Part shown: positions 5,043 through 64,000 of the stretch, in pieces | Layout of the letters: the number at the start of each line of letters is the position of its first letter | How positions within the stretch are numbered: the stretch's first letter is position 1 | Assembly: GCA_013287965.1 (NCBI GenBank) | Contig: JABDCU010000003.1 | Location: 4,231-68,230, forward strand | DNA length: 64,000 bases | Reading direction: 5' to 3' | Source: Candidatus Omnitrophota bacterium | Lineage (GTDB): Bacteria > Omnitrophota > Gorgyraeia > Zapsychrales > Fredricksoniimonadaceae | Position numbers and translations under genes: made by a program | The notes under the pieces: generated by a model | What the model was told of the DNA's origin: nothing | What the model saw: the letters and a program-made list of their open reading frames with translations, nothing else | Database searches by the model: none

Positions 5043-5053
5043 GGAATAAAAAT

Positions 5054-32819: not shown

Positions 32820-32898
32820 GGTTTTTAATTTGGTTAGGTTGGGGGCTGAAGTGAAAGTTTTGTAGCAAAGTTTTACGTAAGGAATAATGCTAATGAAA

Positions 32899-37675: not shown

Positions 37676-37790
37676 AGTGTTTCTCGTGTGATTCCACTGC
37701 TACTCATAGTAATCTTAATTAATTCATACATAAATTAGGGTGACGCACAACTTAATTCTAACTGGATTCCTACTTTCGCACGAATGACAA

Positions 37791-37847
37791 GCGAATCCCC
37801 TGCCGCACCAGAGAAAAACCACCGTTCGAATTCACCTGCAGGGCTGG
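37791..37847 (+). repeat. 57-nt conserved island element, copy 1
   Basis: GCGAATCCCCTGCCGCACCAGAGAAAAACCACCGTTCGAATTCACCTGCAGGGCTGG. Confidence 0.85.
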
Positions 37848-37855
37848 TGTAAAAA

Positions 37856-37894
37856 AGATTGCTTCGTCGACCTTCGGCCTCCTCGCAATGACAC
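37856..37894 (+). repeat. hairpin (REP-like) repeat; terminator-like on minus strand
   Basis: AGATTGCTTCGTCGACCTTCGGCCTCCTCGCAATGACAC preceded by A6 (T6 on minus strand). Confidence 0.8.
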
Positions 37895-37978: not shown

Positions 37979-38007
37979 AAGATACTGCTTTTAGGGAATT
38001 ACTTCAA
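37979..38007 (-). promoter_or_regulatory. conserved promoter module, copy P4
   Basis: Minus strand AAAAAGCTTGAAG, 17 nt incl. CTAAAAGCAG, TATCTT. Confidence 0.4.
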
Positions 38008-38062
38008 GCTTTTTGATGCAGGAAGGTTAAAATCAAGCAGGCAGCCAGGAAAGCAGAGAAGT

Positions 38063-40421: not shown

Positions 40422-40769
40422 TCAAAGCTTATTGTACTTTGTATGCTTACCTTTGGCCTTGTGTACGGGGTATTTTAGGGCGTTTTTCTTCATTTTATTC
40501 AGCATTGCCTTGGGGAGGTCGATTTTTAGATTGTCGGCTAATTCGAATAGATACATGGCTACGTCGGCTAATTCATCGGCGAGGTCTTCCTTATTGGCTT
40601 TGCCGTGCTCTTCGACTTCTTTTGGGGATTTCCATTGGAAATGTTCTAGGACTTCGCTGGCTTCCAGGACTAGCGAAAGGGCTACATCTTTATGATTGTG
40701 GAATTGTTTCCAGTCGCGGGCGTCGCGAAAGGCTTTGATCTTTGCGGTGAGCTGTTTTATTTCGGACAT
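40422..40769 (-). CDS. mazG: MazG-like nucleoside triphosphate pyrophosphohydrolase
   Basis: LVLEASEVLEHFQWK ... EELADVAMYLFELA; start set to ATG 40769 (matches the paralogous copy); TAGAAT -10 box ends 6 nt upstream (leaderless-like). Confidence 0.85.
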   Translation of the reverse strand: MSEIKQLTAKIKAFRDARDWKQFHNHKDVALSLVLEASEVLEHFQWKSPKEVEEHGKANKEDLADELADVAMYLFELADNLKIDLPKAMLNKMKKNALKYPVHKAKGKHTKYNKL

Positions 40770-41844: not shown

Positions 41845-42013
41845 TGGTAGTTGTCCTTAGTATGCTGGCTTTTGGAACTAATGCTTGCTCTTTAGTTCTT
41901 TTTCATGGATCAAAAGTAGATTTTTGACACTTACGTTGGGCTGCTTTATCTTGTACATTGTACGATAAGTTTTACGAAAATAAAACAGGTTATTTAGAAC
42001 GGCTTTTCGCGAA

Positions 42014-42070
42014 GCGAACCCCCCGCCGCACCAGAGAAAAACCACCGTTGCGTTCATCTACAACGTCTGG
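42014..42070 (+). repeat. 57-nt conserved island element, copy 2
   Basis: GCGAACCCCCCGCCGCACCAGAGAAAAACCACCGTTGCGTTCATCTACAACGTCTGG. Confidence 0.85.
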
Positions 42071-42092
42071 TGTAAAAAACACAATATTCTGG

Positions 42093-42760: not shown

Positions 42761-42824
42761 AATTGAGGCATTATGTCAGAAAAATGGAAAATCGGCAAGA
42801 AGCTGGTATTGAGGGGCGCGCGAA

Positions 42825-42881
42825 GCGAAATCACTGGCGCGCCAGAGAAAAACCACCGTTGCGTTCATCTAAAAGGGCTGG
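42825..42881 (+). repeat. 57-nt conserved island element, copy 3
   Basis: GCGAAATCACTGGCGCGCCAGAGAAAAACCACCGTTGCGTTCATCTAAAAGGGCTGG. Confidence 0.85.
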
Positions 42882-42971
42882 CAGAAAAAACATATCGGTG
42901 TGAGCCATGGCTCTAAAGGATGGGGCCAGTGGGATATGGAGTTAGTGGGCATGGAAGGCTCCTTTAAGAAC

Positions 42972-44733: not shown

Positions 44734-44762
44734 AGACTAGCGCTTTTAGAGAGTTAGCGCAA
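44734..44762 (-). promoter_or_regulatory. conserved promoter module, copy P2
   Basis: Minus strand AAAAAAGCTTGCGC, 17 nt incl. CTAAAAGCGC, TAGTCT; 24 nt upstream of ATG 44709. Confidence 0.5.
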
Positions 44763-44838
44763 GCTTTTTTAGGTAGCAGCCAAGAAACCAACCATTGTTT
44801 TTGCAGATCAGACAGGGGTTTTTCACCCTTTTCGCGGA

Positions 44839-44895
44839 GCGAAACCACCGCCGCACCAGAGAAAAACCACCGTTGAATTCATCTAAAAGGGCTGG
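44839..44895 (+). repeat. 57-nt conserved island element, copy 5
   Basis: GCGAAACCACCGCCGCACCAGAGAAAAACCACCGTTGAATTCATCTAAAAGGGCTGG. Confidence 0.85.
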
Positions 44896-44903
44896 TAGCA
44901 AAA

Positions 44904-44937
44904 AGATTGCTTCGGGGCTACGCCCCTCGCAATGACA
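44904..44937 (+). repeat. hairpin (REP-like) repeat
   Basis: AGATTGCTTC-GGGGC-TAC-GCCCC-TCGCAATGACA, abuts the stop codon of the mazG remnant. Confidence 0.8.
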
Positions 44938-45146
44938 CTAGAGCTTGTTATATTTTGTATGTCTGCCTTTGGCTTTATGTACGGGGTATTTTAGGGCGTT
45001 TTTCTTCATTTTATTCAGCATTGCCTTGGAAAGGTAAATAAAAGGACTAGCGAAAGGGCTACATCTTTATGATTGTGGAATTGTTTCCAGTCGCGGGCGT
45101 CGTGAAAGACTTTGATCTTTGCGGTGAGCTGCTTTATTTCGGGCAT
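44938..45146 (-). pseudogene. mazG paralogue with ~145-nt internal deletion
   Basis: Both ends align with 40422-40769 (MPEIKQLTAKIKVFHDARDWKQFHNHKDVALSLV ... / ... KKNALKYPVHKAKGRHTKYNKL); 209 nt, out of frame. Confidence 0.8.
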
Positions 45147-45304: not shown

Positions 45305-45334
45305 GATCGTTTTGTTGACGTCAACAAAACGATC
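45305..45334. repeat. perfect 30-bp palindrome downstream of dinD
   Basis: GATCGTTTTGTTGACGTCAACAAAACGATC. Confidence 0.9.
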
Positions 45335-45351: not shown

Positions 45352-46185
45352 TTACTTCTTTGCACTTCGAGCGATAGTTTTCCCTTCTGAACTTAGCCGG
45401 CGTTGTAATTTCTTGATATCTTCTTCAGCAGGTAACTCTTCCGGTTTAATACCACTTTTGCCTAAAAGGGCTCGAACATCCTTGTTATTTTTGACATGTT
45501 CATCTGTAATGACTGATTCGCCCTTTAAATTGTTCTTTTTGGAATTAAAACTGGTTATTTCAGTTGCCAGATCTTTGGCTTTAATAGTTATCGTTGGTAA
45601 AAAGTCAGCTATAGGACGCTTTTCCGGAATTTTGAGCTTTTTCTTCATTTCAAGGGTTGTATGTCCTCCAAAGAGCGCTTCATCACCTTTACTGCGCAAT
45701 CTGGCAAATCCTTGGCCATCTACTCCCCTCTCATAAAGAACCCCTGATAATTCATGCTCCGTTTGAGATAATTTTTGGCGGGCGTGTACTCTTTCTACAA
45801 GCGCTATGCGCTCCTCCAAGATCTCTTGCTTACGCGTCTGAATGGCAAAATAGCTTTGGGCAAAGGCAATTTGTTCTTTGCGTGGGTCGCCGTTTTGGGC
45901 GATTAGATAGCAGGCGTAACGGGTTAACATTATATCATCGACTTTTCTTTGAGCTCCTTTAGCTAAATCGATCATTTTGTTGACGTCAACAAAATGATCG
46001 GCAATGTTTTGTTTCGACTTAAAACATGCTGTTTTAGCCTTATCAATCACCAAAACAAAATTACGCCATTCGGCGTAATCTAAGAGCGCCTGTAGGTCTC
46101 GCGCCATCCAATATTCAACTCCATTATGAGAATGCGAAGACTCTTCAAACGTTTTGTTTAATTTAACGATGATTTCAGTTTTCAT
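45352..46185 (-). CDS. dinD: DNA damage-inducible protein D family
   Basis: [51 protein letters not shown]. Confidence 0.8.
45970..45999. repeat. perfect 30-bp palindrome inside dinD
   Basis: GATCATTTTGTTGACGTCAACAAAATGATC (codes for [11 protein letters not shown]). Confidence 0.9.
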
Positions 46186-46419: not shown

Positions 46420-46534
46420 TGTCGCCTCCTATTTAATAAAGGGAATTAGAAATAAGAAGCGGCAGGATGGTACGGTCAGAGTGCTTCCTTACTTATTTTC
46501 CATCTTTACGTTGTAAAGTCAAATTATTTTTGTA
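46420..46534 (-). promoter_or_regulatory. conserved promoter + structured leader module, copy L1
   Basis: Minus strand TTGACT-TTACAACGTAAAGATG-GAAAAT, then GGAAGC...GCTTCT hairpin, then AGGAGG SD. Confidence 0.5.
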
Positions 46535-46553
46535 CTACTAAGGAGAATGACAA

Positions 46554-46610
46554 GCGAAACCACCGCCGCACCAGAGAAAAACCACCGTTGCGTTCATCTA
46601 CAAGGGCTGG
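46554..46610 (+). repeat. 57-nt conserved island element, copy 6
   Basis: GCGAAACCACCGCCGCACCAGAGAAAAACCACCGTTGCGTTCATCTACAAGGGCTGG. Confidence 0.85.
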
Positions 46611-46620
46611 AATAATTTGT

Positions 46621-47824: not shown

Positions 47825-47937
47825 GACCGCCTCCTCATTTAAAGTGGATTATTAAACAGAAGCGGTAGGACGGTACGATTAGGATGCTTCTTTACTTATT
47901 TTCCATCTTTACGTTATAAAGTCAAATAATTTTTGTA
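47825..47937 (-). promoter_or_regulatory. conserved promoter + structured leader module, copy L2
   Basis: Aligns with 46420-46534 over the whole length; hairpin AGAAGC...GCTTCT. Confidence 0.5.
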
Positions 47938-50669: not shown

Positions 50670-50927
50670 ATGAAAATCAGGATTTTTATGTTTTTGATCT
50701 TAGGGATAGGTGCGGCGGGAATTTGTTTTTCACAATCCAATCCCTCTAATAATTCAGAGACTAATGTGGAGACTAACGCGAATACGGCAATAAACGTATA
50801 CACAAACGAAGACAAGAACGCCGGCGTGACCACCAGCATGAACGGTAATACAAGCACTGCTTCCGGGGGATCTATTTCAAGCACTTCATCAGGTTCAGAG
50901 AGCAGAAAAACATCCGGCAGCAATTAA
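50670..50927 (+). CDS. exported 85-aa Asn/Ser/Thr-rich protein
   Basis: AGGAGAG SD 5 nt upstream; signal peptide MKIRIFMFLILGIGAAGICFS; preferred over the antisense 102-aa ORF. Confidence 0.5.
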   Translation: MKIRIFMFLILGIGAAGICFSQSNPSNNSETNVETNANTAINVYTNEDKNAGVTTSMNGNTSTASGGSISSTSSGSESRKTSGSN

Positions 50928-50934
50928 AAGGTTC

Positions 50935-50958
50935 AATCCCGGTACTTTTTGTCCTTAA
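50935..50958 (+). repeat. 24-nt direct repeat, left copy (copy of the TPR gene 3' end)
   Basis: AATCCCGGTACTTTTTGTCCTTAA identical to 51840-51863. Confidence 0.9.
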
Positions 50959-51002
50959 AAAATCGGAACACATTACCTTTTTCAATAAGTCAATGTGTCC
51001 CG
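50957..51002 (-). terminator. terminator of the transposase gene
   Basis: Minus strand CGGGACACATT-17 nt-AATGTGTTCCG (11 bp, one G-U) + ATTTTTT; left arm overlaps last codons. Confidence 0.7.
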
Positions 51003-51667
51003 GTTTTTTTAGGACGTCCGTTAGGTTTTGGTTTTAAAACTTCTGCCTTGATGCCAAGCTTCCCTGCTAATGATCCAAGAAAACAGTCTTCTCCTAGGGG
51101 CAAACCGTTCAAATTTCGCTTTCTAATTTCCTTTAATATGCCTTCTGCTTCCGGCTTAATCAAATACTCTTTCCAATCCCCCACTAGTGGTACAGCAGGA
51201 CAATAAGAAAGCAGAGAATCTTCCACTGCGTTTACATGGTTTCGAGCGCTTGACCATAAATAATCCCATGCTTTTTCAACCATTCCTGCCCGGACGGGAT
51301 TGTTCTCAACATAACGCAATGTTCTAATAAGATAAGCTTCATCCATGACAAAGCTAATAAACCTTCCTTGCCATAAGTAGCCACGCCAGTCATACCGCGT
51401 ATTGATATGACATGTAAAGCGCCGATTTGTTTCTGCCACTGCTTTAGCCAATCCTTCTTGTGTTTTTGGAACCAAAATTAAATGGACATGATTGTCCATT
51501 AAACAATATGCCCAGACTTCGACATTGTATTTATCGACCTGTTTTTTGAGCAGTTTAAGATAAAGGATCTTGTCACCGGGATAAAAGAAGACCTGCTGAC
51601 GACGGTTTCCACGTTGGATTACATGATGCGGTTGTCCAGGAATTACGATTCGATGCTTTCTTGACAT
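50990..51667 (-). CDS. Y1 (HUH) transposase, REP-associated tyrosine transposase / IS200-like family
   Basis: HHVIQRGN, HUH motif DNHVHLIL, catalytic-Tyr helix LRYVENNPVRAGMV. Confidence 0.8.
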   Translation of the reverse strand: MSRKHRIVIPGQPHHVIQRGNRRQQVFFYPGDKILYLKLLKKQVDKYNVEVWAYCLMDNHVHLILVPKTQEGLAKAVAETNRRFTCHINTRYDWRGYLWQGRFISFVMDEAYLIRTLRYVENNPVRAGMVEKAWDYLWSSARNHVNAVEDSLLSYCPAVPLVGDWKEYLIKPEAEGILKEIRKRNLNGLPLGEDCFLGSLAGKLGIKAEVLKPKPNGRPKKTGTH

Positions 51668-51670
51668 ACT

Positions 51671-51692
51671 CCCCCCTTTTGTTTTTAGGGGG
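51671..51692 (-). promoter_or_regulatory. SD-sequestering hairpin in the transposase leader
   Basis: mRNA CCCCC-uaaaaacaaaa-GGGGGG-AGU-AUG. Confidence 0.5.
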
Positions 51693-51753
51693 ATTAGTGG
51701 TTAATTTTAAAAATTAATTTTATGAAATCCTGGGGGAAGGATTGATTAGAATA

Positions 51754-51782
51754 AGATTAGCGCTTTTAGGGGTTTGGTGCAA
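51754..51782 (-). promoter_or_regulatory. conserved promoter module, copy P3
   Basis: Minus strand AAAAAGCTTGCAC, 17 nt incl. CTAAAAGCGC, TAATCT. Confidence 0.5.
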
Positions 51783-51801
51783 GCTTTTTAATGGGGGAAC
51801 G

Positions 51802-51832
51802 AAAAACTGGGACATAAAAGTCAATGTGTCCC
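51802..51832 (-). terminator. terminator after the TPR gene
   Basis: Minus strand GGGACA-12 nt-TGTCCC then AGTTTTT. Confidence 0.5.
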
Positions 51833-51837
51833 GGTTT

Positions 51838-52383
51838 TTAATCCCGGTACTTTTTGTCCTTAAGCATATTGACGATGCGGGGATTTACGGTGCCTCCTAA
51901 TTTCTGTATTTTAATGATGTCTTTCCAAACTTTATCATAATCATTTAATTTAAAATAAGCGCTCATGCGGCTGATATAGGTCCTGACATTATCAGGGTCT
52001 AATTGAATGGACTTGCTGTAGTCAGCAATGGCTTTGGCATATTTTTTCTTATAAAAATAAGCAATGCCGCGCACGTGATAGGCCGCGGCATATTTAGGGT
52101 CAATTTCGATGGCCTTGTCAAGATCAGCAATGGCCAGTTTATACCTTCTCATTTTGATGTAAATAAAGCCCCTGTTGTAATAGGCGTGTGAATAACCAGG
52201 GTCAGCCTGGATGGCTTTAGTGTAATTAAGAATGGCGTCTTTATATTTTGCCTGCCTGCCGCTGACATTACCCAGATGCAGGTATTGCGCTGCTGTTAAC
52301 GGGTGGGCAGCCGGCGGCGGGGTTTGTCCGTATGCCGCCATCGGGGCGGTCAACAGCATCAGGATAAAATAATATTTTTTCAT
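51838..52383 (-). CDS. exported TPR-repeat protein
   Basis: Start set to ATG 52383 (AAAGGAG SD); signal peptide MKKYYFILMLLTAPMAAYG; 4-5 TPR units (AILNYTKAIQADPGYSHAYYNRG...). Confidence 0.75.
   Translation of the reverse strand: MKKYYFILMLLTAPMAAYGQTPPPAAHPLTAAQYLHLGNVSGRQAKYKDAILNYTKAIQADPGYSHAYYNRGFIYIKMRRYKLAIADLDKAIEIDPKYAAAYHVRGIAYFYKKKYAKAIADYSKSIQLDPDNVRTYISRMSAYFKLNDYDKVWKDIIKIQKLGGTVNPRIVNMLKDKKYRD
51840..51863 (+). repeat. 24-nt direct repeat, right copy (true 3' end of TPR gene)
   Basis: Encodes KDKKYRD-stop on the minus strand. Confidence 0.9.
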
Positions 52384-52407
52384 CGCTTGGCTCCTTTGTT
52401 TCAAAAT

Positions 52408-52430
52408 AAGTCAATGTGTCCCGGTTTTTT
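52408..52430 (+). repeat. terminator half-site element abutting the yoeB stop
   Basis: AAGTCAATGTGTCCCGGTTTTTT, no partner arm. Confidence 0.7.
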
Positions 52431-52692
52431 ACTCGTAATGCGACCACATTCTAAGGATTTTAACAGACCTTGACTCATCAAAAACTTGGTAGACCAACCT
52501 ATGTTGAATATTGATCCGGCGTGAATATGTGCCTTTCAAATCATTCATCAATTTTTCATATTTGGGAGGGTTTTGATAGGGATTGTTACGCATGATCTCC
52601 AAAAGTATTTCAGCTTTGTTTTTTAAACCCGCTCTCGCCAATTTTAAAGCGTCTTTTTGGGCATCTTTGGTAAAAACGATTTGCCAAATCAT
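52429..52692 (-). CDS. yoeB: YoeB/Txe-family toxin
   Basis: FTKDAQKDALKL...LKGTYSRRINIQHRLVYQV...ILRMWSHYE; start set to ATG 52692. Confidence 0.85.
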   Translation of the reverse strand: MIWQIVFTKDAQKDALKLARAGLKNKAEILLEIMRNNPYQNPPKYEKLMNDLKGTYSRRINIQHRLVYQVFDESRSVKILRMWSHYE

Positions 52693-52697
52693 GAGCT

Positions 52698-52940
52698 TTA
52701 CCAATTCAATTTTTTGGCGCACTTATTAAGAGGGGTCTTCATGCCTTTTTTAATGGAAGCGGCCATCCCAGGCACGCTCATTAAGTAAACAGTTTCCTGC
52801 AAAGCAGACCAATCTTCTTCAGAGATCAAAACGGCATTATGACGTTTACCGGTGATCTGGATAGGCTCATGCGACGCGGCAGTCTCATCCATTAAACTAT
52901 ACAATTTAGCCCTGGCTTGACTTGCTGTTAATGTTGTCAT
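52698..52940 (-). CDS. yefM: YefM/Phd-family antitoxin
   Basis: MTTLTASQARAKLYSLMDETAASHEPIQITGKRHNAVLISEEDWSALQETVYL. Confidence 0.85.
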   Translation of the reverse strand: MTTLTASQARAKLYSLMDETAASHEPIQITGKRHNAVLISEEDWSALQETVYLMSVPGMAASIKKGMKTPLNKCAKKLNW

Positions 52941-53067: not shown

Positions 53068-53096
53068 TTGACATCTTAATCAACAGGTGTTAAATT
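53068..53096 (+). promoter_or_regulatory. promoter of vapBC (leaderless-type)
   Basis: TTGACA (53068-53073), 17 nt, TAAATT (53091-53096); ATG 53102 lies 5 nt after the -10 box. Confidence 0.55.
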
Positions 53097-53101
53097 TAAT
53101 C

Positions 53102-53272
53102 ATGACTACTAAAGCCGCTAAAGCTCTTAAGCATTTATATAAAGCACGTGAATTGGCCAAAACTCTGCCCAATCCTTTTAAAAATATGACTGAAGAACAG
53201 ATCATTGCCAAACTGCGTAAGACGCGTGAAGAACTCTGGCGGGAAAAATATGCGCCTAGTGCTCGACACTAA
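53102..53272 (+). CDS. vapB: putative antitoxin of the PIN toxin
   Basis: 56 aa, MTTKAAKALKHLYKAR...MTEEQIIAKLRKTREELWREKY; overlaps the PIN gene by 23 nt. Confidence 0.55.
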   Translation: MTTKAAKALKHLYKARELAKTLPNPFKNMTEEQIIAKLRKTREELWREKYAPSARH

Positions 53273-53666
53273 TATCTTTGTTTTTGCTTTTTCAGATATA
53301 CCTAAACCATCCTGTCTTGAGCTGATTGAAGCAATTGCTGCTTTATCTCCCAAAGTATCAATCCATATTCCCCGGACAATATTACGAGAAACACGCAGAC
53401 ACTTAAATCCACCCCAGTTCAAAGAATTTGTTCTATTCATACACGAAATGGCCCAAACAGACGAAGATATTATTGTCCCATTCGACACCGGAATTAAATA
53501 CGAACAAATGGGTCTCAAGCCTGCGGACGCGATGATTGGCGCGTATACCGAATGGATTGGAGCCGATGTTCTTGTTTCTGAAAATCGTCATTTTCTATCC
53601 CGCCAGCCTAATCTGCCCTTCAAAGTCCTGACCGCTGAAAAAACATTGAAGTTGCTCAAGAAATAA
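53250..53666 (+). CDS. vapC: PIN-domain toxin
   Basis: MRLVLDTNIFVFAF (first acidic residue), ADAMIGAYT, VSENRHF; start set to ATG 53250. Confidence 0.75.
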   Translation: MRLVLDTNIFVFAFSDIPKPSCLELIEAIAALSPKVSIHIPRTILRETRRHLNPPQFKEFVLFIHEMAQTDEDIIVPFDTGIKYEQMGLKPADAMIGAYTEWIGADVLVSENRHFLSRQPNLPFKVLTAEKTLKLLKK

Positions 53667-53707
53667 CCGATCATAAATTCTTTTTCCTTTCATCGAACGC
53701 GCTGGGC

Positions 53708-53722
53708 CTGTCCCGGTTTTTT
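53708..53722 (+). repeat. degenerate terminator half-site abutting the giant-gene stop
   Basis: CTGTCCCGGTTTTTT. Confidence 0.45.
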
Positions 53723-56700
53723 AGCTCGTGGCGCCTTTGATGACGGCGAATTTGATCACGATGGCCTCTCCCAAGTTGCCGCCGCTCTGATTCGTGACGG
53801 TAATGACGAAGGAACCTGAGGCTTCGGTGTTCGCGTCAGTCGTGTAAGACCCTATGGACCCGCCTGAATCATGCTGGGTATAAACACAGTCTGCCGATGC
53901 CACCGCGGTATCGTTAACGGTAAAACTGACTGATGCCCCGTGGTTTAGCGTCGCATTATTCATGGTAATGGTGCCGGAAGGCGCATTGATGGTCACGGCT
54001 GTTGATTTGTTGGTCAATTGGGTCACGGTCGCGCCCGCCCCCGTTGTATACCCAATGCCCGTAGTGCCGGATGAAAGGATGCCTCCATTGACCTGAAGCG
54101 CCGCGCCCGGCACTGTTGTGCCGATTCCCACATTACCGCCATTTGGATTGATGACCAGAGGATAATGCGCGGTCTGGTCCGTGCTGTTGGTCATCTGGGC
54201 ATAGCCATAATTGCCGCCGTTGGTGCCAAAAAGCATCATGGCCCCGCTGTTTGGCTGCTCAGTCAGACGCAGTGTGCCACCGCCTGCCGACCCGGAAGTG
54301 GCAATGGCACCCGTGGTGCCGCTGACATTAAGCGGCGCGCTGGGCGTCGTGGTGCCGATGCCCACGTTGCTGCCGTTAAAATAAGAATTATTTGCTGCTG
54401 TTGATGAAAGTTGCAAGCCGACACTTCCGGCGCTATTATCCAGATTTACGGTCGCGTTGCCGGAGGCAAGGGTGCTCACAGTAAAAGCCACATTGCCTGT
54501 TGTATGGGTGATCAAGAAATCAAGGGACCCGTTGCTGGCCCCCGCGACCTGTAATTTTCCGGATGCCGGGTTCGCCCCGACGCCCACATTGCCGCCCATG
54601 ACCGTTAATGCCCCGCCCGGCGCCCAGGTGCCTATGCCCACGTTGCCGTTGGTCACAACGAGGCCGCCTTGCGGAGTGCTGGTGCCGATGCCTACATTGC
54701 CGTTTGGAAAATCGACATTGGTGATAGTGGTCGTACTTCGGTTGACCAACAGCCAGTTGGTGGCAATAGAACCTGCATTGTTGAGTGCCCTCATCGTAAA
54801 TTGACTGCTGCTGTTGCCGCCGGCATCCCAAACCCGATTGTCAGCTGAGGCCCCTTGTGCGTCAAATGTCACGCTCGCATTGCTCGCGGCGAGATAAATG
54901 TTGCCCGAGTTTGCCCCGATTATATCGGGACTTCCGTATCCGCTAAGGATCGCGTTTGCCGTTCCTGCCCTCACCTGTCCGTTGACATCCAATTTATAAG
55001 CTGGCACCCAGGTGCCGATGCCCACGTTGCCGCTTTGGGTGATGACTATCCTGTCCGCGGAATTGGACCTGTCGTAAATTTCAAAATTGTCGGCGGTTGT
55101 GTTGACATTCTGCCCTACCTGCCATGTCCGCGAGGTGTTTGCAAACCACAGGTCAGCACCGTTACCGGTGCCGCCGCTTGATTCAATTTTTATCCGGGAA
55201 TTGCTGCCGGCCCCATAGATATCCAAGGGCGCGGTCGGCCCCACCGAGCCGATGCCCACGTTGCCGGCGACCATCCTCATCCACTCCTGCGCGGCCCCGG
55301 CCGGATAACCGCCAAACGCCAAACTGATATTGTCGTTTGACGGGCGGATGGCCTCTATGTACCCACCGTAGTCTGTCACTGAGAAATTGGACCGTGGCGA
55401 AAACACCAGACGGACGGATTGGTTGCTGCCTGTGTTGGCATTTTGGAGATTTGCGGCAACATAGGTCGAGGCGCTTGAACCCCGCACATCCAGCGTTGCC
55501 AACGGCGCGGCTATCCCGATACCGACGTTGCCGTTGGTCACGGCGAGGCCGCCTTGCGGGGTAGCTGTGCCGATGCCCACGTTGCCATTGCTGTCCACCC
55601 TCACCCTTTCACTGCCATTGGTCCAAATACGCGCGAAGTTGCCTGTATCAACAAAGACACCATTAGTAATAGAACTTCCCGCGGTATCTTTGAAGCCTAA
55701 AGTTGAAGTGTCTGAATATAAATATCCGGGAACGGCAGAGGCATCACTGCCTTGAAAAGAAAGCACGGTCCTGGCCGTGTTGCTCCTGACCGCGAGCGCC
55801 ACTGCCGGCGTCCAGGTCCCTATACCCACGTTGCCGTTGGTCACCACGAACCCCCCTTGCGGGGTGCGTGTGCCGATGCCGACGTTGCCCGAGGGACCAT
55901 CGAAATTAGCTATAGGCAAATTTTTACCATTATCAATCTCAAAACTTCTAAAATGTGTCGTTCCATTATTGTAACCAGTATAGTTAAGATACCCTGTATC
56001 ATCCCCGTTATGCCCATAATTAAAATTCAGGGCGTTGGCATTCGATGTATAAATCCCGTAACCTCCTATCACGATATCATTGACTAAAAGACCTATACCA
56101 TTTGCCACCTGTGGAACAACAGCAAGAGCGCTGCTGCCCGGCGCCCAGGTGCCGATACCAACGTTTCCGCTGGTCACGACAAAGGCTCCTTGCGGGGAGC
56201 TTGTTCCGACGCCGACATTGGTGCCGGGGGTGTTGTAGATATTAAAGCCGCTCCAGTTCCAGCCGCCACCAGCGAGATTGGGTTGCCAAGTGGCATTCCC
56301 GTTATTGTCCGAGGTCAGCACATAGCCGTTGCCCGGTGAGTCGGTCATTGTGAAGTCGGTTGTCCGCGTGGTGCCTTGTACATCAAGCCTCTGGCCCGGC
56401 GCGGTCGAGCTGATACCCACGTTGCCGGATTTTATTGTCAACCTATGCGCCCCACCCGTTGTGTCATAAATGGAAAACGCACCCGCACCCGGACCATTAC
56501 CGCTGCCGGTCGAATTAAGACTATATGACGCGCCGCCTGTATCTGTGTTAATCAACGTAACACTGGCCCCATTATTGGCGCCACTGACGCTGCGTACAAT
56601 AAGACCGGTGTTATAGGCTGCTTGACCTGCGATATCCAGCAATCCGCCCGGCGCCCAGGTGCCGATGCCTACGTTGCCGTTGTCAATGATGAAGCCGCCT

Positions 56701-59700
56701 TGCGGGGTGTACGTACCAATACCAACATTACCGTTTGTGTCAAGATACATTCTTGTTGTACCCGCCGTAATAGGATTGCCCCCTTGTGCGTTTGATTGCT
56801 GGAAAGCGATGTCACCAATGTTATGTTGATCAGTTGCAATGCCCCAATTTCTATAAGTTGACGTAGCTTTTGTAGTGTTAAGAGTCAAAGCGGCGCCAGG
56901 ATTGGCACCTGTATCGGTTATTGCAAGAATAGTATCACTACTTGCATCACCTCCGCTAACAACATCAAGCGGATTACTCGGTGCCCAGGTGCCGATACCC
57001 ACATTGCCGTTGGTCACCACAAATCCGCCGCCTTGCGGGGTGGTGGTGCCAACACCCACGTTGCCGCCAGTCGTCATATACATGGCGGTATTCCCATTAG
57101 GCTGAAAAACCAAATCAGCGCCATTGCTGGTGCGGACAGCAGCGCTGGTCGAGGTCAGACCTTCCAATATAATGTTGGCCTGACCGGCGAAATTGCCGGC
57201 AGAAAGATCCCCCCTGACCTCAAGGGTGTGGGACGGCGCTGTCCATGTACCGATGCCCACGTTACCGTTGGTCACGGTGAAGGCGGCCTGCGGTATGAAG
57301 GTGCCGATGCCAACATTACCGTTGGTGTCAATCAAAATACCCGTGGAAGATACCGAATTATTAGAGGCAAGCCATAAATCATTCCCTGAGCCCGCCCTAA
57401 AAATGGTAGATGTGTTGACCGGCAAAGATCCCCACGTCCACAGGCCTTCGTTGGCCGTGGGACCAATATTAATAGTGTCCCGAAAGAGGGATTGGCCATT
57501 AACGTCCAGGATCTTTCCAGGTGTCCAGGTGCCGATGCCCACGTTGCCGACCCTGTTTATGCTCATGGCAGCGGCAGGCACACCGCTGTTGTATGCCTGG
57601 AACTGAAAGCCGGTGCTTTCCTTGGTCCCTGGAACATACACCAGATCAATAGCATCCCCGGTGACAATGCCGCCTGTAAAATACTCATCAACATAATTCT
57701 CTCCGGGCCTGTCAAGCCGGAACTCACTGACCACATGGAGGTTTTGCTGGGGAGTGATGGTGCCGATGCCTATGTTGCCGTTGTCGAAGATCGCTCCGTT
57801 GCCTATTGTTGTGGCGCTGGTGGCTTTGGGCACATAGCCCGTCGTCAATCCGCTGATGGAACCGCTGAGGCCGGTCAAATGCGAGCCGTCGCCGTAATAG
57901 GAACCGCTGACCCGCGCGTCGCCCGTGATGTCCAGCACCTTGCCCGGCGTCACGGACCCGATGCCTACGTTACCACCGTTGGGATTAAAAACAAGCGGAT
58001 AGACAGCTGACAGATCAATCCAATTGCTATTCTGTAACCAGACACCATAAGGAGAAGCCGTATAAGAACCTATATACAGGCTGTTTCCATTAGGAGTTAC
58101 AAATGATGCTGTTCCATTGGGCACGGTCCCTGATGTAGCCGGAGAATTGGAAGTTCCCTGGACCTCAAATTTTAATCGCGGCGCCCAGGTGCCGATGCCA
58201 ACGTTGCCGTTGGTCACGGTGAGGCCGCCTTGTGGGGTGCTGGTGCCCACACCGACGTTGCCGGTAAAGTAACTGTTACCTGAACCGCTAAATGATCCTG
58301 TCAGCGCTGAGATCGGCGCATCACCGGAATTATCCCCTAACCTTACTTGCAGGGTTGTACCGCTTCGGACCAATCCGGGATAAGCATTCGTCGCGCCGCC
58401 AATATCGATTATCAGTCCGGCATTAAGATACAGCCTATTATTGGTTTGCATAATAACGTCCCCGAAACCAGAATCCCCAAAAGCGATATTGTTGGCACTG
58501 ACTGCAATGATAGATTCGTTGGCATTTTCCGCATAGGTGTGGGCATTGAGCGTAAATGCATTGCTTACACGCAGGTCACCGGCAGTCGCCACGCTCGTGC
58601 CAACGCCGATATTGCCTTGCACCAGCAGACCATTTGTCGGGGCGGCGGTTAATCCTGCATAGGTGGCTCCGATCGCCATGCTGCCATTGACATCCAGCTT
58701 ATTTACCGGCGCCGTGGTGCCGATGCCGACGTTGCCGCTTTGTAATATTTGCATTGCAGCTCCTACAGTTGCAGGCAAAAATTCTATCCCGGAAGTCCAG
58801 CCGCCGGATGAGCCAACTTGTAATAATGACGAGCTAACCCCTGTAATTTCATACCAATTATTGCCGCCTATAAGTCCATTGTTTCCGTCTAATTTTATAT
58901 CTCCGTTCACATCTAATTTTGACGTTGGTCCCACCGAGCCGATGCCTACGTTGCCGCCGTTAAGGATGGTAACTTCAGCACTGGAATGGCCGAATTGAAG
59001 CGGATATGTGCCTGCGGCACCGATTATTGTTGAATAGGGCGAATCGCCATTAATAAAGCTGGCTGGAGTGCTTCCTTCTATTCCAAAAAACGCGGAACCT
59101 CCTGTATTGTCAAGCCTGTAACGCGCCCGGTTTGTACCTGTTGTGGATAAAAGGTCTATTGCCCCTATAGTGCCTACTACATCAAGTTGCGATCCGGTTG
59201 ACACCCATGTGCCGATGCCCACAAGGCCGTTGGTCACGACAAAGGCGGCCTGCGGGGTCGTGGTGCCTATACCCACATTGCCGCCGGTGTCAAACATGGA
59301 GCCGTTGCCTATTGTTGTAGCACCGGTGGCTTTGGGCACATACCCCGATGTCAGTCCACTGACCGATCCGGCGGGCCATGACGAATTGCAAACATGGCCC
59401 AGGCATATGGAGCCGGAGCCGACGTCCAAGGTGCCCCCCGGAGACGTGGATCCGATACCCACAGAACCGGTAGCGAAATTGTACTGGCTTGCACTAAATT
59501 CTACGGGTTCAAAGGTGGTGTTCGCATCGTTGAGAATGAAGACATCCGTTGTCGGCGAGCCAAGCTCAGACCCGCCACCTACCGCAAATTCCTCATTTGT
59601 GCCGCCGCGCACGTTGAATTTGGCGATCGGATTTATCGTCCCGATGCCCACACTGCCGCCGTCTGATGCCAAAAAGATATTCCTGTAAGCGACACCCTGG

Positions 59701-62700
59701 CTGACCGCGTTAATGCTAAAATAATTACCTGTTGTGTTATAGGAAGTGTATGCTCCGCTTCCGCTGGGAGTATGTACCGGACCCCAGTCTATTTCCGGAT
59801 TAGAAGCACCATCCACTTCCAATTTTGCCCCCGGCGCCCATGTGCCGATGCCCACGTTGCCGTTAGTTACGATGAGGCCGCCCTGCGGGGTCGTGGTGCC
59901 GATGCCAATGTTGCCATTGGTTTGTATAGTCAATCTGTTATTACCCGCGGAAGTAGGGTCTGCGTTGCTGGTAATCTTGAATTTCTCGCCATCCTGGTTG
60001 TCAAGTCCTGACGACCAGCTTTGCTGTCCGGGGCTGGTGTATACTGTCGCGGCATAACCCGCGCCGCCGCCCCCTGTTTCGAGCTGTAAGGCGCTATAAG
60101 CTGACGATGTGTTGTTGAGATTATGTAATAATATGATCATTCCTGTTGAATCTGATTTGTCCATTTCAATATCATACCCTGGCGCCCAGGTGCCGATGCC
60201 GACGTTGCCGTTCATCACTATGAAACCGGCTTGCGGGGTGGTGGTGCCGATGCCGATGTTGCCGCCGGTGTCAAAGATGGAGCCGTTGCCTATAGTTGTA
60301 GCACCGGTGGCTTTGGGCACATATCCCGTTGTCAGGCCACTGATGGAACCGCTGATGCCGGTCAAATGCGAGCCGTCGCCGTAATAGGAGCCGCTGACCC
60401 GCTCCGAGCCTTGGATGTCGAGATTTTGACCCGGCGTTAAGGAATTAATGCCGACGTTGCCCGCGGAATCAATCATCATTCTGTAAGCAGATCTGGCCAA
60501 ATCATAAAATGCCAAGCCATGACTGCCTGCAGCCCCATCGGCCTGGATATACCAACTTTCACCGGTGTCTTTCACATTAATCCCGGCACCGGTCGTATTT
60601 GTTGACATGAATCTTCCATAAACATTCCCTGTGCCCGACACATCAAGCAGTTTCCCCGGAACGAAGGTCCCGATGCCCACGTTGCCGGTGCTAAAACTGT
60701 AAACTTTTCCGGATGGAACAGTGAAAGCTATATTATTCGTAAGTGCATTGATATTAAAATCGTTATTGCTTCCAGTAAGAGAACCGATAGAAACTCCGCT
60801 TCTGGTAAAATCTTCAAATGATGCGCCGGTTTGAGTCAGAGACAGCAAAGATGACGGCAATGTAGTGCCTATGCCCACGTTGCCGCTTCCATCGATTGTT
60901 TGTCTTACCGCGCCGGTTGTGAGGAATTGCACAGGCACGTTGTCTTTATCACCAAAATAAATAGCGCTGTTTGCTATCGCCGTACCGGAAAAAGGGTTGG
61001 CTCCGGCAGAGCTGGCAGCTCCCCAATAAGCGTCAGTTGCAGATGTTCCAATATGAAAATAACCGCCATTTGTCGCTGTTGATGAATTACCAAATATTTG
61101 ACCTGAACCAACTGTTGATACTAATCCACCGCTAAGCGTAATCCCTCCAGCCACCTCTAATTTATTAACAGGGCCCACCGTGCCGATGCCCACGTTGCCG
61201 GCGCTGTCAATAGTCATTCGGACGGCATTATTAGTAGCCACCTGTAACGGATATGCACTGGCTTGAGTTCCAATAATACTCGCGTAAGGTGAAGTCCCAG
61301 TGACCAAAACGCCCCCAGCACTGCTTTCTACCCCCAAGACCAATGTTCCACCGGTGTTTGTTTCCTGTATCCCGACACGATTGGTCCCTGTTGTTGATCT
61401 TAAGGCAAAATCTCCTTCCGATGCTCGTATGTCTACAGGATATTGTGTCACCCAGGTGCCGATACCCACATTACCGTTAGTCACGACAAAGGCGGCCTGC
61501 GGGGTCGTCGTCCCAACACCCACGTTGCCTTTAAAATAAGCCCCACCGCTGCTGCCGTCAATGCTCGCCAGTACGGAGTTTTGCGCCCCGTTTTGCACCA
61601 GCAAGCCGTAATTATTGGTGCCGAAGTTTGGCTGGCCAAGAATAAGCAGTGAGGCAGCATTAGTTACCGATCCTCCGCCGCTCTTACTGCCTGAGACGCC
61701 GTTGGCGGCAATGGTCGCGAAGTTGGTAGCCGAGCCGCCGGTCGTATTGATGCTTGGATAAGCGTAGATACCAAAAGAATTGGTCAGGGCCGTGGAAGCG
61801 GTAAGAGTATTGGACACGGTGAGGCCACCGGTATTGTTGTTCGTCGTCCCTTCGATGCTAATCCCAGCGCCGCCGAAGATGGTCAATTGTGAGTCAGGCG
61901 TTGTCGTGCCGATGCCCACGTTGCCGCCGTTGGGATTTAACAATAAAGCATAATTGGTATTCAAAGCACGCATGTCCGTACTTTGCAGCCACGTCGCATT
62001 GGTCCCCGCTGAATCCCCTATGTCTAAAACGACGTCACCAGAGGCCCTGGAATCCCTGAATCTTGCAACACCTCCTGTCTGTGCTGTTCCTGAGTTGGCA
62101 GGTAATCCATAGGCAGCGCCCAAAATTTCCAATTTCATTACCGGCGTCGAGGTGCTGATGCCGACGTTGGTGCCGTCGTCGTATACAATTGAATTGGTCA
62201 GTGTCGTGGCGCTGGCGGCTTTGACGTGGTAATTAGTTGTCAGGCCGCTGACAGTGCCGCTGATGCCGGTCAGGTGTGAGCCGTCGCCGTAGAATGCACC
62301 GCCGTTGCTGGCGCGGATATCCCCATTCACGTCTAAGGCCTTGCCAGGATTGATTGTCGCAATGCCCACATTGCCGCCGCTGCCTAAAATGGTAAGCATA
62401 GTGCTGGTGCTATTGTCTATTGTCAGTTTACCGCCGCCGGCACCGGCATTATTATTCGTGCTGTTGATGTTCCATGGGAGCCCTCCCGTGCCGGAATTGT
62501 TGAGAGTCAGGGAAGAGTTGTTTCCGGTGGTCGTGACGCGAAGATTGGTGGCATTGCCGGTACCATTGATATCGAGCTGATAGGAAGGGATTGTCGAGCC
62601 GATGCCCACGTTACCGGCGGTATCAAAAGTCATCCTGGCCGTGCTGTTCGTGAACAGTTGAAGTGGCGTGCTGTTCCAACTTCCGACGGCAGACGCATAC

Positions 62701-64000
62701 GCCAAGCCGTTGTTGATCAGGGTATTGCCGTTCGCGGAATTGACAACACCAAGGGCCAATTGCCCACCCGTGTTCTGGAGCAATCCATAAAGATAATTAG
62801 TGCCTGCCGAGGACAGTTGATAGTTGAACATCTGGGCGGCCGCGCCTGCCATCTGCACATCTAATTTACTGCCCGGCACCGTCGTGCCGATGCCCACGTT
62901 GCCGGAGACGATCAACCCGTTGGAAGGACCGGTGTTTGCCCCGGCATACGCACCGATGCCCACAGACCCTGCCACATCCAATTTATTAAGAGGTATTGTG
63001 CCTCCATTGCCAATACCCACGTTGCTGTCCCCTCCCCGGATCACAATGGCAGGGCTTGAAAACGTAAGTCCGCCGATGGCTGTTGAAGGGGTGATCTCAA
63101 AAGCGTTATTCAGGCTAATATTATTGCCCACTTGCCACTTATAATGGTTGCTGGTCGTATCGTCATAAACTATTCTTCCGCCGCCGCCGTTGGAAATATG
63201 CAAAGGACCCTGGGGAGTGGTGGTGCCAATGCCCACGTTGCCGCCGTTGATGATCGTCATGTCCGGAGTATTGTTTGTGATATAAAAACCAAGGTTTTGG
63301 TTGCCGCTGGCTGATGAGTTCTTTAAGTAGACCCAGTTGGTGCCGTCGCCGCGGTAGAATTTCAACTGATTATTGCCAAGTATGCCGACGTTTCCGACGA
63401 CATCCAACGGATTTCCCGGTGACGTGGAGCTGATGCCCACATTGCCGGCTGTTGATAAATACATTGTCCCAACAACGTTTGTATCAAATTGTAAACTTGC
63501 GCCAGCGCTTCCATTCGGGTTATAGACTCTAACATGATTATCGCTTGCTGAATTTTCAAATAATAGAGAACTACCGGCTAATAATTGGGTGTTTCCATTT
63601 ACTGACACCTTATTCCCCGGCGCCCAGGTGCCGATGCCCACGTTGCCGTTGGTCACGGTGAGGCCGCCTTGCGGTGTCGTGGTGCCGATGCCGACATTGA
63701 CATTGCCGTTGGTGGCGTAGATGCGCAGGCCGGACCACGTCCATCCGCCGCTGGCGGCATTGGCCATCCAGGTGCCGTTGCCGTTATTGTCCGAGGTGAG
63801 CACATAGCCGTTGACCGGCGAAACAGGAAGCGCAAATCCCGTCATCCGCGCGGTGCCGGCCACGTCCAGCGTCTGGCCCGGCGCCGTGGAGCCGACACCG
63901 AGATTACCATTTGAATCCATTGTTGCCGCTGTCACATAACCTGAGCCGTTATTGGTCACAAAGTTAAAGCCCATTCGGTTATTGAGACCTGTTACCGTAT
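53721..64000 (-). CDS. giant repetitive fibre/surface-like protein, C-terminal >3,420 aa (5' end outside window)
   Basis: Single ORF open to the right edge (no in-frame stop upstream of Met 63974). Built of GNVGIGT(T/W)xP(Q)GG(L/F)xVxNGNVGIGTWAP units plus recurring YYGDGSHLTG(I/L)SGSISGLTTGYVPKATGATTIGNG modules, with a unique ~150-aa C-terminal domain. Confidence 0.85.
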   Translation of the reverse strand, partial: TVTGLNNRMGFNFVTNNGSGYVTAATMDSNGNLGVGSTAPGQTLDVAGTARMTGFALPVSPVNGYVLTSDNNGNGTWMANAASGGWTWSGLRIYATNGNVNVGIGTTTPQGGLTVTNGNVGIGTWAPGNKVSVNGNTQLLAGSSLLFENSASDNHVRVYNPNGSAGASLQFDTNVVGTMYLSTAGNVGISSTSPGNPLDVVGNVGILGNNQLKFYRGDGTNWVYLKNSSASGNQNLGFYITNNTPDMTIINGGNVGIGTTTPQGPLHISNGGGGRIVYDDTTSNHYKWQVGNNISLNNAFEITPSTAIGGLTFSSPAIVIRGGDSNVGIGNGGTIPLNKLDVAGSVGIGAYAGANTGPSNGLIVSGNVGIGTTVPGSKLDVQMAGAAAQMFNYQLSSAGTNYLYGLLQNTGGQLALGVVNSANGNTLINNGLAYASAVGSWNSTPLQLFTNSTARMTFDTAGNVGIGSTIPSYQLDINGTGNATNLRVTTTGNNSSLTLNNSGTGGLPWNINSTNNNAGAGGGKLTIDNSTSTMLTILGSGGNVGIATINPGKALDVNGDIRASNGGAFYGDGSHLTGISGTVSGLTTNYHVKAASATTLTNSIVYDDGTNVGISTSTPVMKLEILGAAYGLPANSGTAQTGGVARFRDSRASGDVVLDIGDSAGTNATWLQSTDMRALNTNYALLLNPNGGNVGIGTTTPDSQLTIFGGAGISIEGTTNNNTGGLTVSNTLTASTALTNSFGIYAYPSINTTGGSATNFATIAANGVSGSKSGGGSVTNAASLLILGQPNFGTNNYGLLVQNGAQNSVLASIDGSSGGAYFKGNVGVGTTTPQAAFVVTNGNVGIGTWVTQYPVDIRASEGDFALRSTTGTNRVGIQETNTGGTLVLGVESSAGGVLVTGTSPYASIIGTQASAYPLQVATNNAVRMTIDSAGNVGIGTVGPVNKLEVAGGITLSGGLVSTVGSGQIFGNSSTATNGGYFHIGTSATDAYWGAASSAGANPFSGTAIANSAIYFGDKDNVPVQFLTTGAVRQTIDGSGNVGIGTTLPSSLLSLTQTGASFEDFTRSGVSIGSLTGSNNDFNINALTNNIAFTVPSGKVYSFSTGNVGIGTFVPGKLLDVSGTGNVYGRFMSTNTTGAGINVKDTGESWYIQADGAAGSHGLAFYDLARSAYRMMIDSAGNVGINSLTPGQNLDIQGSERVSGSYYGDGSHLTGISGSISGLTTGYVPKATGATTIGNGSIFDTGGNIGIGTTTPQAGFIVMNGNVGIGTWAPGYDIEMDKSDSTGMIILLHNLNNTSSAYSALQLETGGGGAGYAATVYTSPGQQSWSSGLDNQDGEKFKITSNADPTSAGNNRLTIQTNGNIGIGTTTPQGGLIVTNGNVGIGTWAPGAKLEVDGASNPEIDWGPVHTPSGSGAYTSYNTTGNYFSINAVSQGVAYRNIFLASDGGSVGIGTINPIAKFNVRGGTNEEFAVGGGSELGSPTTDVFILNDANTTFEPVEFSASQYNFATGSVGIGSTSPGGTLDVGSGSICLGHVCNSSWPAGSVSGLTSGYVPKATGATTIGNGSMFDTGGNVGIGTTTPQAAFVVTNGLVGIGTWVSTGSQLDVVGTIGAIDLLSTTGTNRARYRLDNTGGSAFFGIEGSTPASFINGDSPYSTIIGAAGTYPLQFGHSSAEVTILNGGNVGIGSVGPTSKLDVNGDIKLDGNNGLIGGNNWYEITGVSSSLLQVGSSGGWTSGIEFLPATVGAAMQILQSGNVGIGTTAPVNKLDVNGSMAIGATYAGLTAAPTNGLLVQGNIGVGTSVATAGDLRVSNAFTLNAHTYAENANESIIAVSANNIAFGDSGFGDVIMQTNNRLYLNAGLIIDIGGATNAYPGLVRSGTTLQVRLGDNSGDAPISALTGSFSGSGNSYFTGNVGVGTSTPQGGLTVTNGNVGIGTWAPRLKFEVQGTSNSPATSGTVPNGTASFVTPNGNSLYIGSYTASPYGVWLQNSNWIDLSAVYPLVFNPNGGNVGIGSVTPGKVLDITGDARVSGSYYGDGSHLTGLSGSISGLTTGYVPKATSATTIGNGAIFDNGNIGIGTITPQQNLHVVSEFRLDRPGENYVDEYFTGGIVTGDAIDLVYVPGTKESTGFQFQAYNSGVPAAAMSINRVGNVGIGTWTPGKILDVNGQSLFRDTINIGPTANEGLWTWGSLPVNTSTIFRAGSGNDLWLASNNSVSSTGILIDTNGNVGIGTFIPQAAFTVTNGNVGIGTWTAPSHTLEVRGDLSAGNFAGQANIILEGLTSTSAAVRTSNGADLVFQPNGNTAMYMTTGGNVGVGTTTPQGGGFVVTNGNVGIGTWAPSNPLDVVSGGDASSDTILAITDTGANPGAALTLNTTKATSTYRNWGIATDQHNIGDIAFQQSNAQGGNPITAGTTRMYLDTNGNVGIGTYTPQGGFIIDNGNVGIGTWAPGGLLDIAGQAAYNTGLIVRSVSGANNGASVTLINTDTGGASYSLNSTGSGNGPGAGAFSIYDTTGGAHRLTIKSGNVGISSTAPGQRLDVQGTTRTTDFTMTDSPGNGYVLTSDNNGNATWQPNLAGGGWNWSGFNIYNTPGTNVGVGTSSPQGAFVVTSGNVGIGTWAPGSSALAVVPQVANGIGLLVNDIVIGGYGIYTSNANALNFNYGHNGDDTGYLNYTGYNNGTTHFRSFEIDNGKNLPIANFDGPSGNVGIGTRTPQGGFVVTNGNVGIGTWTPAVALAVRSNTARTVLSFQGSDASAVPGYLYSDTSTLGFKDTAGSSITNGVFVDTGNFARIWTNGSERVRVDSNGNVGIGTATPQGGLAVTNGNVGIGIAAPLATLDVRGSSASTYVAANLQNANTGSNQSVRLVFSPRSNFSVTDYGGYIEAIRPSNDNISLAFGGYPAGAAQEWMRMVAGNVGIGSVGPTAPLDIYGAGSNSRIKIESSGGTGNGADLWFANTSRTWQVGQNVNTTADNFEIYDRSNSADRIVITQSGNVGIGTWVPAYKLDVNGQVRAGTANAILSGYGSPDIIGANSGNIYLAASNASVTFDAQGASADNRVWDAGGNSSSQFTMRALNNAGSIATNWLLVNRSTTTITNVDFPNGNVGIGTSTPQGGLVVTNGNVGIGTWAPGGALTVMGGNVGVGANPASGKLQVAGASNGSLDFLITHTTGNVAFTVSTLASGNATVNLDNSAGSVGLQLSSTAANNSYFNGSNVGIGTTTPSAPLNVSGTTGAIATSGSAGGGTLRLTEQPNSGAMMLFGTNGGNYGYAQMTNSTDQTAHYPLVINPNGGNVGIGTTVPGAALQVNGGILSSGTTGIGYTTGAGATVTQLTNKSTAVTINAPSGTITMNNATLNHGASVSFTVNDTAVASADCVYTQHDSGGSIGSYTTDANTEASGSFVITVTNQSGGNLGEAIVIKFAVIKGATS

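Follow-up and report, generated by a model that had tools for sequence, protein, structure and literature searches.

A native gene end is duplicated around a putative RAYT-type Y1 transposase unit in an Omnitrophota genome

Contig JABDCU010000003.1 of a Candidatus Omnitrophota bacterium (GenBank assembly GCA_013287965.1) carries a Y1 transposase unit located at the very stop codon of a tetratricopeptide repeat (TPR) gene, and this unit is enclosed by a real and recent 24-nt duplication of the native end of that gene. We analysed the unit within a window of 64,000 nucleotides of the contig (positions 4,231 to 68,230); coordinates below are positions in this window, and L-numbers denote related loci retrieved from other assemblies. 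Judging from its sequence and from the modelled structure of its protein, the unit is a transposase gene of the REP-associated tyrosine transposase (RAYT) type with cognate ends of the repetitive extragenic palindromic (REP) type, part of an undescribed REP/REPIN system of an Omnitrophota clade, and not a classical IS200/IS605 element. Comparison with related loci further identifies the long duplication as an occasional but recurrent by-product in this system, not as its rule.

The 24-mer AATCCCGGTACTTTTTGTCCTTAA occurs exactly twice in the window (50935-50958 and 51840-51863, forward strand), and the 881 nt between the two copies (50959-51839) harbour an open reading frame (ORF) with a Y1_Tnp domain, as stated in an earlier reading of this DNA made from the letters alone (hereafter the original prediction). 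The copy at 51840-51863 comprises, on the reverse strand, the final codons (..NMLKDKKYRD) of the TPR gene (51838-52383, reverse strand; 181 amino acids from the ATG at 52383). The TAA stop codon of this gene lies at 51840->51838, and the unit (51839->50959) indeed abuts it, as had also been noted. The secondary copy at 50935-50958, which reads TTAAGGACAAAAAGTACCGGGATT on the reverse strand, is non-coding and begins 7 nt past the stop codon (50925-50927) of a small convergent ORF on the forward strand (50670-50927, 85 amino acids). Since the sequence was assembled from a metagenome, and assemblers may be led astray by short repeats, a chance repeat or an assembly artefact might be suspected; however, 100 shuffles gave no match to the 24-mer even with three mismatches permitted, an independent 6.9-kb Logan assembly (SRR8431262; L001) is 100% identical across the region, and the same architecture is met in the genome represented by L002 (see below), which leaves this explanation a practically negligible probability.

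The C-terminal sequence LKxKKYRD/E of the TPR protein is kept in 20 orthologues (51-74% identity), and the REP-type repeat is absent from all orthologous TPR loci examined. Of the orthologues with usable contigs, L055 is the closest (78%); its gene ends with CTTAAGGACAAAAAATACAGGGATTAAAAC and runs directly into the next gene. The copy at 51840-51863 is therefore native, i.e. the true gene end that it had been taken for, and the copy at 50935-50958 is the duplicate. The TPR orthologue loci examined thus represent distant 'empty' sites only, and the order TPR gene followed by a zf_Tbcl_2 gene is retained in just one relative among them (L008/L056). The zf_Tbcl_2 gene lies 20 nt after the TPR gene in this relative and 1.3 kb downstream of it in the window; judging from this gene order, the small convergent ORF may thus be a later arrival as well. 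A separate idea, that the TPR gene end was a 'pseudo-REP' target or had been converted by the repeat, was prompted by the resemblance of AAAAAGTACCGGGATTGA to AAAAAACCGGGACACATTGA, but the residues concerned are conserved in the repeat-free orthologues and CGG accounts for 13% of arginine codons, i.e. is ordinary here, so this idea is unsupported.

The transposase gene itself (50990-51667, reverse strand) encodes a protein of 225 amino acids with the HxH motif (HVHLI) and the YxxNPV tyrosine motif of Y1 (HUH) enzymes. The protein matches the Pfam family Y1_Tnp (E = 7.8e-15), and its best sequence match in PDB is 4ER8, the Escherichia coli TnpA_REP, with the motifs of which its HVHLI and RYVENNPV align. 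An AlphaFold model (predicted local distance difference test score 89) likewise has 4ER8 as its best fold match (E = 2.5e-8; template modelling score, target, 0.72), followed by the transposases of ISDra2, IS608 and IS200 with E values of ~3e-5 to 1e-4. Two features set the protein apart from the described RAYT family: its best NCBIfam model, REP_Tyr_transpos, scores 62.9 bits and hence under the cutoff of 80, and it has a C-terminal extension of ~85 residues. A scan of viral contigs with the transposase gave no match.

Read in the direction of the gene, the 881-nt unit starts with AAAAACCGGGACACATT and ends with AATGTGTTCCGATTTTT, with a forward repeat first and an inverted repeat last, and the direct repeats touch both ends. 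The left-end REP AAAAACCGGGACACATTGACTTTT (51839->51816) is followed by a degenerate inverted partner (51815->51799), and the two form a hairpin (51799-51839, reverse strand; -9.6 kcal/mol, z -3.8) succeeded by a T-run. The right-end REP in inverse orientation (50959-50982; AAAAGGTAATGTGTTCCGATTTTT on the reverse strand) differs from the family consensus by two substitutions and abuts the ancestral transposase stop codon TAA (50975->50973). An extra forward REP, AAAAAACCGGGACACATTGACTTATT, lies within the 3' end of the transposase gene (50984-51009, reverse strand) as a 26-nt insertion equal to the copy at 52405-52430; it is absent from eight relatives, and it provides the present stop codon TGA (50992->50990) together with the tail ..KKTGTH*. 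The right end, including the ancestral GGTAA stop and the inverted repeat, folds at -18 kcal/mol (z -6.0). We also observed that the right-end hairpin (50951-51015) gains 5 bp from the duplication, with AGGAC of the duplicated 24-mer pairing with GTCCT of the last transposase codons, which may be a coincidence or a clue to the origin of the duplication.

Altogether the window contains at least four REP copies, namely three exact copies of AAGTCAATGTGTCCCGGTTTTT (50987-51008, 51818-51839 and 52408-52429; AAAAAACCGGGACACATTGACTT(A/T)TT on the gene strand) and one partial copy. The third exact copy belongs to a solo forward REP without a hairpin partner (52405-52430, reverse strand), situated past the stop codon of YoeB (52431->52429) and before the TPR gene start, whereas the partial copy, AAAAACCGGGACAG (53707-53720, reverse strand), lies directly past the stop codon (53723->53721) of an ORF of 3417 amino acids. 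The original prediction had reported a 22-nt element near both ends of the unit; the element is present there, with its first copy at 50987-51008 rather than extending to 51010, but the third exact and the partial fourth copies had escaped notice. The element is in fact a REP with more sites than had been listed, and two of its copies form hairpins with inverted partners right next to them (50958-50981 and 51799-51815).

The dispersal of the REP becomes apparent in related Omnitrophota. The consensus derived from 120 copies is a 27-nt asymmetric sequence, A5-7CCGGGACACATTGACTTTTT, and a pattern scan with one genome per species retrieved 75 copies at 44 loci, nearly all in about eight Omnitrophota metagenome-assembled genomes and on many contigs. 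The copies occur as solos and, more commonly, as inverted doublets resembling REP doublets forming hairpins (REPINs). We distinguished 29 doublets of 49-124 nt in related genomes, and the right end of the window unit (50959-51009) is itself one doublet. The doublets have 22-25-nt arms forming hairpins of 22-25 bp (-26.8 kcal/mol, z -7.4); the solo repeat lacks an internal palindrome, and no fold is predicted for it (-1 kcal/mol, z +0.9). Stop codons are a preferred location: 34 of 124 copies have the stop codon of an ORF of at least 70 codons at the start of their A-run or at their internal TGA, with 1.2 expected (~28-fold). Solo copies sit on the stops of co-directional genes, and the repeat-encoded tail ..KTGTH* ends several genes in addition to the window transposase. 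Two loci, L138 and L140, which come from the JGI sample series of the TPR-orthologue loci L006 and L008, contain 10 and 13 copies in ~7 kb (6.4 kb and 7.5 kb, respectively); here roughly one repeat lies past almost every gene's stop, and the genes look like repeat-separated cassettes.

The unit in the window follows a plan common to L002, L003, L004, L135, L138, L140, L141 and L142, i.e. a forward repeat, a leader, the gene, its stop codon and the inverted repeat TGTGTCCCGGTTTTTT. The relatives have leaders of 40-90 nt, at the end of which a CCCCC..GGGGG stem covers the ribosome-binding site. The corresponding stem-loop of the window, CCCCCT..AGGGGG(G) (51672-51692, reverse strand), also overlaps the ribosome-binding site, and the stem motif is conserved in all nine related units, its folding energy alone being not significant (z -0.9). 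Absent from the leaders of the relatives are ~95 nt within 51798->51693, which contain a promoter-like module (P3; 51754-51792, reverse strand; TTGCAC, 17 nt, TAATCT). This module exists as four 37-nt copies in the window (32793-32829, 37981-38017, 44736-44772 and 51756-51792). Rfam assigned neither the leader nor the repeats to a family and returned only spurious matches of miRNA hairpins to the right-end hairpin, and a simple terminator scan passed over the end hairpins, whose loops exceed the length that it allows. In some relatives, a small passenger ORF separates the transposase gene from the terminal repeat or repeats (L002, 6687-7100, 137 amino acids, membrane-like; L135, 5034-5270, 78 amino acids).

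The transposase homologues are 73-83% identical and yet their gene neighbourhood differs in every genome; therefore the unit moves, and gene order indicates that the transposase gene has clearly changed places. An example is the conserved NadA-hydrolase-MetW block, in which the L135 unit sits between the hydrolase and MetW genes; in L004 only 20 nt separate these two genes, and the unit is found at a distance of 3.7 kb. Two complete gene copies are present in L051, and one complete copy plus a gene fragment in each of L054 and L003. The window itself has one copy, and in the incomplete genomes compared nearly all homologue clusters were seen on one contig. The L003 fragment (5003-5183 vs 5920-6100, 181 nt) begins with the left repeat, continues through the leader and breaks off after 33 codons at another repeat, and that of L054 (3468-3573 vs 5431-5536, 106 nt) is a transposase 3' fragment adjoining a repeat; these unit fragments indicate that repeats inserted repeatedly into transposase copies.

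Scanning for direct repeats that adjoin REPs revealed two more independent cases of a long duplication. In L002 (GCA_021731625.1; transposase 82% identical), a 56-nt repeat with one mismatch, of which 48 nt are exact (5851-5906 and 7124-7179), meets the forward repeat at the left end of the unit and a terminal doublet at its right end. The duplicated stretch holds the stop codons of two convergent genes, one encoding a glycosyltransferase and the other a formyltransferase, with an overlap in ..AGTTAAAT.., and after the insertion each of the two genes keeps a complete end, in different copies of the repeat. In L033 (CAZACW010000039.1), a 91-nt exact repeat, made up of 75 nt of the end of a 281-amino-acid gene and 16 nt of REP, flanks a solo REP. 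The duplication in the window is therefore not a one-off accident, and the fact that 3' ends of upstream genes were duplicated three times, each time touching the repeat ends, argues for a recurrent process, not three unrelated accidents. Two further candidates were dismissed: in L043, a 13-nt repeat on either side of a doublet does not adjoin the doublet ends and is compatible with chance, and a 29-nt repeat at the transposase end in L135 represents two copies of the right-end repeat type rather than a flank duplication.

In the reading that we regard as moderately probable, each long duplication is generated by the insertion event, as a side product coupled to replication. By analogy with the chemistry of IS608, ISDra2 and TnpA_REP, the Y1 enzyme would in normal movement cut single-stranded DNA at the repeats and join it again, duplicating nothing. 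In the window, the unit would have been inserted between the TPR gene end and the convergent small ORF, the predicted empty site reading ..CTTAAGGACAAAAAGTACCGGGATTGAACCTTTTAA... One conceivable route to the duplication is that the single-stranded element was joined to the growing 3' end of the lagging strand and the displaced 5' flap of the next fragment was kept; in yeast rad27 mutants, flap retention gives duplications of 5-108 bp. The other route would be a template switch into the unit, with a return upstream of the point of departure. The three return junctions all combine a T-run with AAG (TTTTTT|AAGGAC in the window, TTTTTAA|AAGGAAAC in L002 and TTTTTTAAG|AAAATCC in L033), and AAAGGAG follows the right-end repeat in the duplication-free relatives L004 and L138, which hints at microhomology at the return junctions. 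Selection would keep such products wherever an ordinary insertion would harm gene ends that adjoin closely or overlap, which those in L002 clearly do.

Several observations weigh against this interpretation. No flanking duplication is found at nine other RAYT loci (L003, L004, L031, L054, L135, L138, L140, L141 and L142), and none of the 29 doublets inspected has one either, short target duplications included; insertion and duplication may therefore have nothing to do with each other. The long duplications amount to only three cases (24, 56 and 75-91 nt), of which that in L033 could be a plain 104-nt tandem duplication, and the junction pattern was noticed post hoc in just these three junctions. 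All the four to six REP copies of the window lie within 3 kb of the transposase gene although 64 kb are visible, and genome-wide dispersal is therefore seen only in the related genomes. A scan of metagenome contigs for empty or filled alleles gave no match to the exact 24-mer, nor was a true empty site found in a close relative, the TPR synteny being too poor for the exact site. The ancestral state envisaged by the original prediction, with the two convergent genes back to back, is nevertheless compatible with the sequence and is exactly the arrangement of L002.

The duplication-free loci also bear on the strong reading of the original prediction, according to which insertion by this Y1 family would as a rule create a long target duplication and follow a mechanism unlike that of IS200/IS605; copies without any duplication were the very outcome that it had put forward as a refutation. 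Its premise was right in that a long duplication is atypical for the latter family, as stated in PMC2817692, and two units in different genomes are indeed flanked by long duplications touching their terminal repeats. Nevertheless, most other copies lack a duplication, and the nine RAYT loci, the 29 doublets and the comparison of the filled L135 with the empty L004 site, which likewise shows none, largely refute a regular signature, so we deem this reading very unlikely. Terminal inverted repeats abutted by direct repeats are also the classical signature of DDE transposases, one of which might have moved the unit in trans like a miniature inverted-repeat transposable element, with a target-site duplication; IS1549/IS1634 are known to make long duplications of variable length, 8-514 bp (PMC2266710). 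However, the duplications compared here are of unequal length, the 29 doublets with the same ends are duplication-free, and no DDE transposase gene is present among the genes examined beside the unit (the rest of the window was not annotated), which makes a DDE enzyme a highly improbable agent.

Two other scenarios were weighed. Y1 transposases excise precisely and without target duplication (PMC2817692), and one can thus imagine a duplication-free insertion past the TPR stop codon, followed by a tandem duplication of the 24-mer with the unit and then by the precise loss of one unit copy. The repeat-bounded partial duplications in L003 (181 nt) and L054 (106 nt) attest that these regions are prone to rearrangement. 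On the other hand, three events with end points exactly at the unit ends would be needed, the same outcome would have to be reached independently in L002, and no tandem intermediate was seen in any locus; we accordingly think this course of events unlikely. Alternatively, a filled allele from another cell or from the sister chromosome may have entered an empty allele by homologous recombination within the TPR gene on one side and, on the other, by illegitimate joining at microhomology of the AAGGA type located 24 nt ahead of the TPR stop codon, re-using the gene end of the recipient. The second copy of the duplication starts with AAGGAC in the window and AAGGAAA in L002, matching the AAAGGAG past the right-end repeat in L004 and L138. 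Such an import would have to be preceded by an insertion without duplication at this very site; in addition, the short microhomology was spotted post hoc, and no donor allele was seen. We consider the import quite improbable. A duplication made during insertion hence stays the explanation that we favour.

Some other features of the window deserve mention. A YefM/YoeB toxin-antitoxin pair (52429-52940, reverse strand) and a PIN-type pair (53087-53666, forward strand) lie immediately upstream of the TPR gene and the transposase, the solo REP following the YoeB stop codon. The ORF of 3417 amino acids past whose stop the partial REP lies (53721-63974, reverse strand) contains dozens of GNVGIGT-type repeats. 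A 77-nt repeat with the core ..CCGCACCAGAGAAAAACCACCGTTGCGTTCATCTA.. and no Rfam family match is present five times in the same orientation with 70-86% identity (37780-37856, 42003-42079, 42814-42890, 44828-44904 and 46543-46619). Two near-identical 30-nt palindromes, GATCGTTTTGTTGACGTCAACAAAACGATC, are found 635 nt apart (45305-45334 and 45970-45999). Finally, segments of ~100 nt are duplicated with 85-96% identity at distances of 1.4-4.5 kb (40426-40769 vs 44942-45146; 46437-46534 vs 47840-47937).

Among known systems, the one in the window and its relatives most closely recalls the REP/REPIN-RAYT systems, such as E. coli YafM/TnpA_REP with REPs and bacterial interspersed mosaic elements, or the REPINs of Pseudomonas. 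They share a Y1/HUH enzyme with the YxxNPV motif, its fold being nearest to 4ER8, and a repeat dispersed, in the related genomes, as solos and inverted doublets that far outnumber the gene. By the definition of Nunvar et al. (PMC2817692), a RAYT is a Y1 transposase whose gene invariably has an inverted pair of REPs around it, in many cases directly at the stop codon. This holds for the window, with its forward repeat at 51839->51816 and inverted one at 50982->50959, as well as for L003, L004, L138, L140 and L141. There are also differences. The 27-nt Omnitrophota repeat has neither an internal palindrome nor a GT(A/G)G head, and only its doublets fold; it sits on stop codons and even supplies them (..KTGTH* tails); long flanking duplications occasionally accompany it; and the gene has moved between sites, in contrast to classical RAYTs, for which a single copy and vertical inheritance are described (PMC5581495). 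We found no paper linking Omnitrophota with RAYTs in the literature searched.

With IS200/IS605 elements (IS608, ISDra2, IS200) the unit shares the Y1 HUH fold, the lack of target duplication at most insertions and, in the window unit only, local hairpins near both ends in the same orientation. In IS200, too, a leader stem-loop covers the ribosome-binding site. Unlike in that family, the unit ends are inverted copies of one 16-27-nt repeat, and these repeats spread on their own; no multi-copy identical elements were seen in the incomplete genomes compared. IS200/IS605 elements are reported to have no terminal inverted repeats and no larger target duplications (PMC2817692), in contrast to the 24-nt and 56-nt duplications that abut the units in the window and L002. 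The label of an IS200-like insertion sequence attached by the original prediction is thus not upheld, given ends that are inverted REPs, a dispersed REP/REPIN system and TnpA_REP as the best structural match. The long direct repeats of variable length around insertions do resemble those of IS1549/IS1634, for which there is no accepted mechanism (PMC2266710); the enzymes concerned are, however, unrelated DDE transposases for which long duplications are usual, while here they are rare and occur beside a Y1 system.

Taken as a whole, we tentatively propose, as a possibility that we would not yet call probable, that in this undescribed REP/REPIN-RAYT system of Omnitrophota the repeats, together with the gene, target exact gene ends (a stop codon plus an A-run) and lagging-strand-coupled insertion sometimes leaves duplications of 24-91 nt derived from the end of the upstream gene. 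Its distinguishing features are the candidate phylum in which it resides, the non-palindromic repeat, the precise placement at stop codons and the relocated transposase gene. To our knowledge, RAYTs are regarded as domesticated, immobile and single-copy and have been studied almost only in Proteobacteria, and we know of no explanation as yet for how they spread REPs and REPINs in living cells. The long duplications at the repeat ends are a footprint not predicted by canonical Y1 chemistry. Provided that they originate during insertion, the replication intermediate used by the enzyme could be read from their length and orientation, and they would show how insertions between overlapping convergent genes can be tolerated. 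Should the proposal prove true, the duplications would be a first sequence footprint of DNA insertion in vivo by RAYT-type Y1 enzymes, and the system would be evidence for RAYT genes still capable of moving themselves.

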